Shown here in pieces: positions 11,047 through 33,816 of a stretch of 41,616 nt of DNA (position 1 is the first letter of the stretch; each line of letters starts with the position of its first letter). The stretch is from Candidatus Peribacteraceae bacterium. Its GTDB lineage: Bacteria; Patescibacteriota; Gracilibacteria; Peribacterales; Peribacteraceae. The stretch lies in NCBI GenBank assembly GCA_041678625.1, contig JBAYNS010000001.1, positions 1-41,616 of the forward strand, read 5' to 3'. The notes beneath the pieces are model-generated. The model searched no databases. It was not told the origin of the DNA and saw only the letters and a program-made list of their open reading frames with translations. Both the position numbers and the translations under genes were made by a program.

Positions 11047-11121
11047 TGGAGCGGGCGAGCGGAATCGAACCGCCGTCTTCAGCTTGGAAGGCTGACATAA
11101 TAGCCATTATACGACGCCCGC
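11047..11121 (-). tRNA. tRNA-Gly(UCC), CCA encoded
   Basis: Hand-folded cloverleaf: GCGGGCG/CGCCCGC acceptor, anticodon stem TCAGC/GCTGA, loop CTTCCAA, T-arm GGCGG-TTCGATT-CCGCT. Length 75 nt. Confidence 0.9.
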
Positions 11122-11230
11122 AGATTTTAAAGATCTTCTCACCATCATTGCCCGCAGCATTCGCAGGCAAGTGGAATCCCTGCGTACTCTGCCTACCGGC
11201 AGGCAGGCGGCAATGTCAGGGGACTGCAGC

Positions 11231-11315
11231 CTTCAGCTTGGAAGGCTGACATAATAGCCATTACCTGTCGGCCGTAGCTCCGCGTCCGCGGAGCGAAGGC
11301 TGATACGACGCCCGC
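11231..11315 (-). pseudogene. duplicated 5' part (positions 1-45) of tRNA-Gly(UCC) interrupted by a 40-nt palindromic element
   Basis: 11231-11263 is identical to 11077-11109 (33 nt) and 11304-11315 is identical to 11110-11121 (12 nt). They are separated by the insert at 11264-11303. No T-arm or 3' acceptor follows. Confidence 0.8.
11264..11303 (-). repeat. GC-rich palindromic element (CTTCG-hairpin-CTACGG..CAGG family)
   Basis: The minus-strand reading is TCAGCCTTCG-CTCCGCG-GAC-GCGGAG-CTACGGCCGACAGG. It matches the family seen at 28848, 33550, 33782, 36276 and 41498. Confidence 0.6.
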
Positions 11316-11368
11316 ATGTGGGAGTTAGAGATTGGGAATGAACGTGAGGGCAGGATACTGGAGAACGA

Positions 11369-11668
11369 TCAGTTTTGTGAAGCTCTCTCGATAGTTTTAT
11401 GAATTTTCTCTTCCGTTGGCGCCTTCCATGGATGGCAGGAGAGCAGGCGCCACAGTGCGCGCATCATGCCCAAAACCAGTCCGTAACGCATAATCATCTG
11501 TTGCGCATACTGCGAGCATGTCGGTTCGTGGCGGCAGTATCCGTATGGCCACAGGTACTGTAAAGGACCGTGATCGGGCGAAAGAGTGCGCTGGTAGAGC
11601 GCAATGATGCACAGAGTAAGCGTGCGGGGAAAACGCCAGAAAAATTGCAGAACGTTGCGCATGAGCAT
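11369..11668 (-). CDS. yidD: membrane protein insertion efficiency factor YidD
   Basis: Has YQRTLSP...CRHEPTCSQYA, the hallmark YidD motif. Length about 99 aa. Confidence 0.88.
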   Translation of the reverse strand: MLMRNVLQFFWRFPRTLTLCIIALYQRTLSPDHGPLQYLWPYGYCRHEPTCSQYAQQMIMRYGLVLGMMRALWRLLSCHPWKAPTEEKIHKTIERASQN

Positions 11669-33528: not shown

Positions 33529-33549
33529 GCCCCCGTAGGCTAATGGATA
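33529..33549 (+). pseudogene. tRNA 5' fragment (acceptor 5' strand + D-arm start), followed by a palindromic element
   Basis: In GCCCCCG-TA-GGCT-AATGGATA, the acceptor strand is complementary (with G.U) to CGGGGGT in the 3' fragment at 33744-33780. Confidence 0.55.
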
Positions 33550-33591
33550 CCCGCCTTCGTCCCGCATATGCGGGACTATGGGCGGGCAGGG
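33550..33591 (+). repeat. GC-rich palindromic element (family member)
   Basis: CCCGCC-TTC-GTCCCGC-ATAT-GCGGGAC-TATG-GGCGGG-CAGGG, with nested stems. Confidence 0.6.
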
Positions 33592-33642
33592 ACTGTTCGG
33601 CTTCCGGCCTGTCCACCGAAGCTTTCCTGTTTATTCTCATAT

Positions 33643-33719
33643 ACACCTGTAGCTCAATTGGATAGAGCGTCAGCTTCCGGAGCTGAAGGTTGTGGGTTCG
33701 AGCCCCGCCAGGTGTACCA
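33643..33719 (+). tRNA. tRNA-Arg(CCG), CCA encoded
   Basis: ACACCTG/CAGGTGT acceptor, GCTC-AATTGGATA-GAGC D-arm, anticodon loop TTCCGGA, T-arm GTGGG-TTCGAGC-CCCGC. Length 77 nt. Confidence 0.88.
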
Positions 33720-33743
33720 TTCAATTGATTGGCGAAGGTGGAA

Positions 33744-33780
33744 GCTGAAGATACAGGTTCAATTCCTGTCGGGGGTACCA
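33744..33780 (+). pseudogene. tRNA 3' fragment (anticodon-stem 3' strand to CCA), Gly-like
   Basis: GCTGA-AGAT-ACAGG-TTCAATT-CCTGT-CGGGGGT-A-CCA. The T-arm is perfect, but no matching 5' anticodon-stem strand lies upstream. Confidence 0.6.
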
Positions 33781-33781
33781 T

Positions 33782-33816
33782 CCGGCTTCGTCCCGCGTCC
33801 GCGGGACTACGCCGTG
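33782..33816 (+). repeat. GC-rich palindromic element (family member)
   Basis: CCGGCTTCG-TCCCGC-GTCC-GCGGGA-CTACGCCGTG. The stem is at 33790-33807. Confidence 0.6.

Follow-up and report, generated by a model that had tools for sequence, protein, structure and literature searches.

Transfer RNA genes are usually regarded as passive targets into which large elements integrate, and integrase-type elements such as islands and prophages target them and duplicate part of the tRNA. Free-standing GIY-YIG homing endonucleases, such as SegB of phage T4, occur in tRNA gene clusters of phages, and intron-less homing is known as well. Short palindromes are found inside genes as well, and the Rickettsia palindromic elements and the GC clusters of yeast mitochondria are tolerated inside working genes. 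Hairpin repeats with known or proposed enzymes include the REP, BIME and REPIN elements, among them GTAG- and CGTC-tagged families, which are mobilised by RAYT (Y1 HUH) transposases (PMC3733652), and the NTS/SRM hairpins with the Ssn single-strand-specific GIY-YIG nucleases (Chenal et al., 2025; PMC11893778), in the description of which tRNA is not mentioned.

The locus described here lies in a window of 41,616 nt, which is the whole stretch of DNA that was analysed, from an ultra-small member of Candidatus Peribacteria (CPR) whose assembly comprises 1.13 Mb in 129 contigs with 40 tRNA genes. A disabled partial copy of tRNA-Gly(UCC), broken by a GC-rich palindromic element (PE) and by a second, 20-nt palindrome (PAL), stands upstream of the working gene. 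As when an integrative element enters a tRNA gene and restores it, a partial tRNA duplication has left a working gene beside a remnant fragment; here, however, it is the 5′ part that is duplicated, the insert measures tens of nucleotides, no integrase is present, and dozens of loci per 1-Mb genome are concerned. The likeness to SegB-type homing is that small GIY-YIG genes adjoin tRNA genes and that a resident allele is replaced by a nuclease-linked allele, whereas at this locus there is no nuclease gene, the disrupted resident copies have not been lost, and their breaks are marked by palindromes; the layout in which the replacement allele is coupled to a nuclease gene was found at the Phe and Ile loci of another genome (G022) and at the Lys locus of the window, but is absent at tRNA-Gly(UCC). 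Like the Rickettsia and yeast mitochondrial elements, PE and PAL are short mobile GC palindromes inserting in genes of small genomes, but unlike them they were seen only in disabled tRNA copies.

The tRNA-Gly(UCC) locus and its upstream copy

The features of the locus are listed below by coordinate in the window. The relatives used for comparison are MAGs or metagenome contigs, among which lineage X comprises L130, L139 and L155.

11047-11121, minus strand: working tRNA-Gly(UCC) gene (ARAGORN; Rfam RF00005, 62.6 bits), the only one found in the assembly
11122-11165, minus strand: leader L, 44 nt, the interval between pseudogene and gene, homologous but diverged in L004 and lineage X
11166-11178, minus strand: pseudo-tRNA positions 56-68, GATTCCACTTGCC, 11/13 identical to the gene, from alignment with L004 and lineage X
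11179-11220, minus strand: T-loop insert block, a degenerate PAL with 10 and 13 extra nt on its sides
11189-11207, minus strand: degenerate form of the 20-nt palindrome PAL, CCTGCCTGCCGGTAGGCAG, within the T-loop insert block
11221-11230, minus strand: pseudo-tRNA positions 46-55, diverged (6/10 identical), from alignment with relatives
11231-11263, minus strand: pseudo-tRNA positions 13-45, exact (33/33), from the exact k-mer census
11264-11302, minus strand: PE, GC-rich and palindromic, 39 nt, lying between tRNA positions 13 and 14 (nhmmer E = 6e-7)
11303-11315, minus strand: pseudo-tRNA positions 1-13, GCGGGCGTCGTAT, exact, from the k-mer census
11316-11381, minus strand: leader of the ancestral gene with its conserved promoter, located downstream of yidD and now leading into the pseudogene
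11352-11381, minus strand: promoter TTCACA-18 nt-TATCCT, from the promoter scan, with the same motifs in the relatives L015, L024 and L033

The working gene is identical at 75/75 positions in the window, L004 and L133. The k-mer census placed the two intact pieces of the copy, positions 13-45 and 1-13, on the same strand as the gene and 110 and 182 nt upstream of it, in agreement with an earlier note on this DNA, which had given two exact tRNA segments (positions 13-45 at 11231-11263 and 1-12 at 11304-11315) parted by a 40-nt GC hairpin, and the same distance of 110 nt to the intact gene. When the 40 tRNA genes were compared with the whole assembly, the longest tRNA-derived exact match off this contig and outside tRNA genes was 18 nt; the 33-nt match at the locus exceeds this maximum, and the copy is therefore not a product of chance. 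Independent assemblies of three further metagenomes (L130, L139 and L155) contain the same architecture.

A functional tRNA was defined by a complete cloverleaf in ARAGORN or by a score of at least 29 bits against RF00005. The upstream copy (11166-11315) fails on both counts: no tRNA was called in it by ARAGORN, by cmscan at the gathering threshold or by cmscan at E <= 10, and its 3′ acceptor strand is absent. Partial tRNA pieces, none of which the covariance model finds at E <= 10, were instead located with k-mers and nhmmer half-profiles. The copy had been taken at first reading for the first 45 nt of the tRNA, without T-arm and 3′ acceptor; the loss of the acceptor stands, whereas alignment with relatives extends the pseudogene to position 68, and the T-arm is not altogether missing, since diverged remains of positions 46-68 are present. 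Judged from these alignments, the upstream copy is a tRNA-Gly(UCC) pseudogene that spans positions 1-68 and has suffered at least two element insertions. Neither an ORF nor a nuclease gene or remnant was found between the pseudogene and the working gene.

Ancestral position and order of events

In relatives, the corresponding region consists of yidD, the promoter-like TTCACA-18 nt-TATCCT, a short leader and a single tRNA-Gly(UCC) gene; in L015, L024 and L033, the leader and promoter of this gene can be aligned with those that precede the pseudogene. Because the conserved promoter and leader run into the pseudogene, the dead copy sits at the ancestral position, and the added part, on the same comparison, is the intact gene together with leader L. 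Leader L is 30/46 identical to its counterpart in L004 and 29/44 identical to that in lineage X, and it is unrelated to the ancestral leader before the pseudogene. Its first ~20 nt (TGCGAATGCTGCGGGCAATG) resemble a decayed hairpin element, and no source sequence for L was detectable; a by-eye sequence comparison ruled out that L is a copy of the tRNA 3′ end with its downstream flank. The promoter scan found no sigma-70-like promoter in L, the conserved upstream promoter being the sole one detected, and since no further promoter-like site lies between the copies, a long 5′ leader that includes the pseudogene and its hairpins is probably transcribed. The reading that we favour, with a probability of roughly 0.65, is that a dead tRNA-Gly(UCC) copy stands at the original site, where it was colonised by PAL and then by PE, and that the intact copy, 44 nt farther downstream, is the functional one.

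A simpler account would be a plain local duplication of the leader and the 5′ part of the gene by slippage or unequal exchange, followed by neutral decay and opportunistic landing of the elements. Precedents exist in the true tandem arrays of tRNA 5′ end plus leader, which comprise five units at Val(GAC) and two units at Ile(GAT) in this genome, with further arrays at Leu(CAG) (two units) and at Arg(TCG) in G024, a genome of a second genus. Tandem duplication predicts similar leaders, however, and these are unrelated here as well as at the perfect copies of positions 1-13 of Trp, Pro, Cys and His; moreover, the allele-discordant pseudo-halves described below cannot stem from local duplication. 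Since the two leaders at the locus are unrelated, plain tandem duplication is disfavoured there, and we consider it unlikely.

The order of events was established by scanning metagenome contigs with the 33-mer, which yielded a series of states for this tRNA allele. Among the syntenic Peribacteria loci, 27/29 are without the fragment.

State 0, L133: promoter and leader, then the gene alone; same allele, no fragment
State 1, L004, L131, L136 and L145: pseudogene 1-55 / PAL / 56-68, then L, then the gene
State 2, L130, L139 and L155 (lineage X): pseudogene 1-13 / PE / 13-55 / PAL / 56-66, then L, then the gene; two substitutions in the copy
State 3, window: like state 2, with the 3′ part of the copy more decayed

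In L004 and lineage X, PAL lies exactly between tRNA positions 55 and 56, and PE is missing from the corresponding site in L004 and identical (39/39) in L155. Because the state-1 lineages hold the copy without PE, PE entered a copy that was already redundant, and it did not trigger the duplication. Comparing homologous loci across relatives, as the earlier note had proposed, does order the events, with the copy first and PE later. This reverses the sequence offered in that note, insertion of the element followed by rescue through duplication, since L004, L131, L136 and L145 carry the fragment without the 40-nt element, an observation that the note itself had named as refuting; its other suggestion, element-mediated recombination as the source of the duplicate, is a live option.

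The wider idea that a palindrome hit the sole working tRNA-Gly and that a partial duplication restored the gene is possible only for the 20-nt PAL in the T-loop. PAL occupies the T-loop of the dead copy in every copy-bearing lineage, for which reason it may belong to the founding event and could be the primary hit, and at other loci pseudo-tRNAs are interrupted by PAL in the T-loop or the anticodon loop. In a single-copy essential tRNA gene, however, such a hit would be lethal unless rescued in the same event, a variant that we have folded into the favoured explanation, and for PE the order in L004 is the reverse of the one required. We rate this idea slightly below plain duplication, as improbable. 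Two further events took place at tRNA-Gly(UCC). In L003, the same gene underwent an independent event that left the order 1-28 / PE / 27-37 / leader / gene. At the G024 locus, a third event placed type A positions 1-26, PE and a leader before an intact type B gene, which is followed by a trailer containing an inverted hairpin and by type A positions ~36-75.

The palindromes and their candidate enzymes

PE reads CAGCCTTCG-CTCCGCG-GA-CGCGGAG-CTACGG-CCGACAGG and is 39 nt long, or 40 nt when T13, which occurs on either side, is included. In single-stranded form, it is predicted to fold into a 7-bp GC stem (CTCCGCG/CGCGGAG) with a 3-bp outer stem, at -10 kcal/mol. The insertion is clean, with 0-1 nt (T13) duplicated and the element itself a palindrome, where a MITE would show terminal inverted repeats and a target-site duplication of fixed length. 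The initial interpretation of the hairpin as an insertion into tRNA-derived DNA was upheld, the site being the D-stem/D-loop junction. A profile search found 40 copies of the PE family in 1.13 Mb, of which 17 lie upstream of a tRNA or tmRNA gene at a distance of no more than 200 nt, where 0.29 would be expected (P = 3e-26). All but one of these (16/17) share the orientation of the gene, and this strong bias fits a strand-specific process. Upstream of tRNA genes, PE usually stands directly after a copy of tRNA positions 1-13, and its junctions with tRNA sequence cluster at positions 11-13; further PE or PAL junctions are located at 5/6 (class II Leu), 18-20, 22/23, 24-28, 34/35 and 55-57. Mapped on the predicted cloverleaf, the junction positions are loops or helix junctions. 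The genome-wide census thus gave the strong D-arm preference that the earlier note had anticipated, and not a random placement of the element. The junction of GTAGCTC with CMDCCTWCG was present in 30/65 genomes of the family and in 0/336 genomes of other families in the class, with 4 genomes matched by the reversed-pattern control, and a contig of another CPR lineage (L150) carries an analogous split copy with a different hairpin.

PAL is a repeat separate from PE, a multi-copy perfect palindrome of 20 nt (CCTGCCTGCCGGCAGGCAGG) with letter-perfect conservation, which was found in 34/71 genomes of the family at up to 17 copies; the control found none. Three of its sites in the L004 genome lie in loops of pseudo-tRNAs. 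A pseudo-tRNA-Phe that immediately follows tRNA-Phe and a GIY-YIG gene carries PAL in its T-loop, and a full-length pseudo-tRNA-Ile of a different allele, behind tRNA-Ile and a GIY-YIG gene, carries it in the anticodon loop; the third site is the T-loop of a pseudo-3′ half of a different allele behind tRNA-Ala.

PE shares with the REP elements a GC-rich, imperfectly palindromic sequence of 20-40 nt and the occurrence in many extragenic copies, and its outer stems differ among copies by paired changes (CCACC/GGTGG, CAGCC/GGCTG and CCTCC/GGAGG). GTAG abuts the stem on one strand, as PE reads ...CGCGGAG-CTAC-GG, which is GTAG on the opposite strand, and a CG(T/C)C-type tag stands on the other, degenerate in the locus copy (TCGCT); with its palindrome length, end tag and 40 copies, PE has the properties that define a GTAG/CGTC-tagged REP. 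Nearly half of the PE copies lie inside tRNA-derived sequence at defined cloverleaf positions, a placement that PMC3733652 does not report for REPs, and, unlike the cognate RAYT gene of a REPtron, the RAYT genes of this genome are not flanked by PE. Two RAYT genes scored above the NCBIfam cut-off (NF047646, 84.8 and 87.1 bits), and their flanks hold other repeats (CCACATCCGCGGCCACGAAG) or none, and no PE. No Y1 transposase was detectable in G024, though this genome has PE-type elements. On these two grounds, RAYT was rejected as the obvious mobiliser of PE.

The PE core also resembles the Neisseria NTS (CGTC-CCCGCG-loop-CGCGGG-A), and a further likeness to the NTS/SRM-Ssn system is the presence of small GIY-YIG genes; the layout of repeat, gene and repeat is IS-like. 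An SRM flanks a single-domain GIY-YIG gene of the cd10448 type; the genome contains ~9 small single-domain GIY-YIG ORFs, several directly behind tRNA genes and some flanked by hairpins. The differences are that none of the 40 PE copies matches the published SRM motif HGTCWYN(0-2)YYVSBRHN(0-5)WNVSBRGN(0-2)RNCYNB (PMC11893778), which is no more frequent in the genome (5 matches) than in simulated genomes (4-9), and that an ssn gene is absent near the locus copy, the nearest GIY-YIG gene being 17 kb away from its PE. Ssn-type GIY-YIG nucleases and RAYT transposases, assigned here from sequence family only, are candidates for the mobilising enzyme.

Recurrence and identity across lineages

The pattern is not confined to tRNA-Gly(UCC). 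An exact copy of the first 9-22 nt lies within ~200 nt upstream, on the same strand, of 13/40 tRNA genes; ~10 further genes have degenerate upstream copies, many have copies of their own 3′ end downstream, and more than half of the tRNA genes in the genome are affected in total. The parallel at tRNA-Gly(GCC), to which the earlier note had pointed, was found again as positions 1-11, a reverse-oriented element and positions 15-23, and the tmRNA gene is preceded by its positions 1-9, PE and a 56-nt leader. In the second genus, G024 has the same pattern at Gly(GCC), Pro(GGG), Pro(UGG), Ile(UAU), Val(GAC), Asn, Arg(GCG), Trp, His and Asp; since its elements, positions or orientations differ from those of the orthologous loci here, the events are recurrent and not inherited. 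Allele-discordant pseudo-halves were identified at Arg(CCG), Glu(CTC) and Leu(TAG) in this genome and at Ile(GAT) and Ala(TGC) in G022. Because pseudo-halves are sometimes of another allele than the working gene, resident genes have been replaced in place, and such allele comparisons show that the working gene is in some cases a foreign allele flanked by the two halves of its predecessor (G024 Gly; others). In the papers searched, which included a search for tRNA-targeting palindromes in CPR or Peribacteria, we found no description of palindromes at defined cloverleaf positions of pseudo-tRNAs beside most tRNA genes or of in-place nesting of tRNA alleles, and a process that repeatedly disables and replaces tRNA genes is apparently undescribed.

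The divergence between the window, L004 and lineage X is deep, with identities of 58-62% for YidD, 65-78% for coding DNA and ~66% for L. Despite this divergence, the tRNA is conserved at 75/75 positions, positions 1-45 of the window copy are perfect, and PE is identical at 39/39 positions between the window and L155, for which the neutral expectation is 0.78^39 ~ 6e-5. The PE core of this locus is unique in the genome, and a second master copy as the cause of the identity was dismissed on that ground. The identity of PE and the perfect positions 1-45 are unexpected under neutral decay, and they point either to recent lateral exchange or gene conversion or to selection on the copy. Lateral exchange is considered likelier than constraint because alleles are visibly replaced elsewhere; the segment would then have passed between lineages recently, with the tRNA-like flanks as homology.

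Selection on the copy would be expected if the pseudo-5′ half and the hairpin were kept as a functional leader, whether for pre-tRNA processing, as a decoy for anticodon nucleases or for absorbing insertions. The persistence of positions 1-45 at 45/45 and of PE at 39/39 against a background of 65-78% would agree with such a role, as would the sole promoter-like site upstream of the copy, which makes co-transcription probable. Most relatives, however, are without the copy, substitutions have occurred in the copy of lineage X and positions 46-68 have decayed in the window, the orthologous tRNAs of the two genera bear different PEs at different positions and in different orientations, and no Rfam match was found, so that a functional leader appears quite doubtful. 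A deleted remnant of an integrase-type island or prophage, suggested by the standing of tRNA genes as classic integration sites with partial tRNA duplication, is very improbable, given that the 5′ and not the 3′ part is duplicated, that the copies are only 44 nt apart without an integrase, where a kb-scale insert would be expected, and that the pattern extends to more than half of the tRNA genes of a 1.1-Mb genome. An artefact of assembling a repeat-rich MAG, conceivable for a genome in 129 contigs, is hardly credible, as the same architecture appears in independent assemblies (L130, L139 and L155; L004, L131, L136 and L145).

We return to the favoured reading of a dead copy at the original site and an added working gene, and take PE and PAL to be selfish mobile palindromes whose targets are loops in tRNA-like DNA, together with a recurrent duplication or replacement of tRNA genes in place. 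PE and PAL would move as single-stranded hairpins into tRNA-like DNA folded as a cloverleaf, mobilised by a hairpin-specific enzyme for which the ~9 Ssn-type GIY-YIG nucleases and the two RAYTs are the candidates. Insertions would survive only in redundant copies, because a hit in a single working gene would be lethal. At this locus, a cassette of the PAL/GIY-YIG type, or incoming DNA anchored on tRNA homology, may have supplied a fresh 5′ part together with leader L, and the nuclease gene of the cassette would have been lost later. PE arrived at 13/14 after PAL at 55/56, and the copy decayed; the pseudogene and its hairpins are now probably part of a long transcribed 5′ leader, removed by RNase P and functionless.

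This genome has single-copy tRNA genes, yet most of its tRNA loci and the tmRNA locus hold broken partial copies, scars that interrupt assemblies of CPR genomes and complicate their tRNA annotation. The pattern offers a biological context for Ssn and RAYT enzymes beyond Neisseria and Pseudomonas. More tentatively, Peribacteria, and probably other CPR, may harbour natural 'cleave-and-rescue' selfish DNA, in which hairpins with or without a minimal GIY-YIG nuclease attack cloverleaf loops, accompany or precede a replacement tRNA, and spread between genera by tRNA-anchored recombination; this would, if true, explain the identity of PE, the allele-discordant broken halves and the widespread scars at tRNA loci. 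If our reading of PE and PAL holds, these bacteria would possess a class of hairpin elements that recognises tRNA-shaped DNA and a route for the in-place turnover of essential RNA genes, and tRNA sequence would serve as a homology anchor for gene flow among diverged CPR lineages.

An apparently replaced tRNA-Arg gene and nested alleles

The tRNA-Arg(CCG) gene of the window looks like a resident gene that has been replaced in place. Its acceptor stem is ACACCTG/CAGGTGT, and it lies between two halves of another tRNA-Arg allele (GCCCCCG ... CGGGGGTACCA), the 5′ one degenerate, each of which is adjoined by a copy of the GC-rich hairpin element PE. A nested tRNA-Gly(UCC) was found in G024, a genome of a second genus, where allele B (GCGGGTA...) sits between positions 1–26 and ~36–75 of allele A (GCGGGCG...), with a PE at the junction on the left and, at the one on the right, an inverted hairpin.

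Window 33529–33816: tRNA-Arg(CCG) with its flanking halves
G024 C1:249800–250800, minus strand (L087/L096): nested tRNA-Gly(UCC)

Scars and tandem units at other RNA genes

In G000, the 1.13-Mb assembly of the same organism, the tmRNA gene, located outside the window, was found to carry the same type of scar as the tRNA genes, the order being a copy of tmRNA positions 1–9 (GGGGATGAC), a PE (CCACCTTCGCCCCGCGAATGCGGGGGCTACGGTG), a leader of 56 nt and the tmRNA itself, whose tag peptide is unusually long (ANYKQTFASLKARFARPSFAFAPAMAFAV) in the ARAGORN reading. tRNA-Val(GAC) is preceded by five tandem 44-nt units, each composed of tRNA positions 1–9, the hairpin TCCCGCGGATGCGGGA and a leader, and tRNA-Ile(GAU) by two units homologous to these; the two tRNAs have their first 27 nt in common (26/27 identical). 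PEs also adjoin pseudo-fragments of tRNAs absent from the assembly, including a 5′ end that resembles Glu(UUC), in which a PE interrupts position 13, and a 3′ end that resembles Asn. The distance from one such fragment to the end of its contig is 30 nt, suggesting that at some tRNA loci the assembly is broken by the hairpin scars. Two genes for RAYT (REP-associated tyrosine transposase) passed the NCBIfam cut-off, and after the one on C5 come three copies of CCACATCCGCGGCCACGAAG, which belongs to a repeat family other than the tRNA-associated PE.

G000 C111:460–560: tmRNA scar
G000 C2:14810–15032 and C115:1870–1960: tandem-unit loci
G000 C88:1–140, C104:2040–2320 and C56:520–720: pseudo-fragments of absent tRNAs
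G000 C5:8247–8546 (−) and C42:499–726 (+): RAYT genes

Analogous scars were seen in a different, AT-richer CPR lineage, represented by metagenome contig Ga0180433_10033783 (L150), on which a split tRNA-Gly(UCC) copy runs from positions 1–24 through an unrelated 36-nt hairpin to positions 25–32, more hairpins, a leader and the gene. Duplicated tRNA-Pro tails, again with hairpins, were observed in locus L146.

The tRNA 3′ trailer

Several tRNA genes are followed by a conserved trailer of ~77–80 nt (GAGTWATAACT...AACTCCCG...hairpin) that terminates in a copy of the last 12–13 nt of its own tRNA, and the position of this 3′-end copy, +77 to +83, is shared by two genera.

G000 C45:5922–6010, C66:4048–4138 and C2:3230–3311: trailer loci
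G024 L123, L113 and L118: trailer loci

The palindrome PAL and pseudo-tRNAs

Both G000 (C8:19853–19929) and G024 (L104) encode a tRNA-Ile with the anticodon UAU, which is uncommon in bacteria, AUA usually being read by a lysidine-modified CAU tRNA. In genome G022, a small GIY-YIG gene lies behind an intact tRNA-Ile(GAU), and next comes a full-length pseudo-tRNA-Ile that represents another allele and is interrupted twice: its D-arm holds a small hairpin and its anticodon is split in the middle by the repeat PAL. Comparable layouts, with PAL in the T-loop, were observed at tRNA-Phe and tRNA-Ala (loci L192 and L194). Another repeat of ~200 nt also contains PAL, between two CCTCACC heptamers.

G022 C8:260350–261000 (L193): tRNA-Ile(GAU), GIY-YIG gene and pseudo-tRNA-Ile
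Window 11189–11207, G000 C8:19763 and G000 C71:332: PAL sites

PAL is a 20-nt perfect palindrome (CCTGCCTGCCGGCAGGCAGG) that is conserved letter for letter. Of the family's 71 genomes, 34 carry it as a multi-copy repeat, with a maximum of 17 copies.
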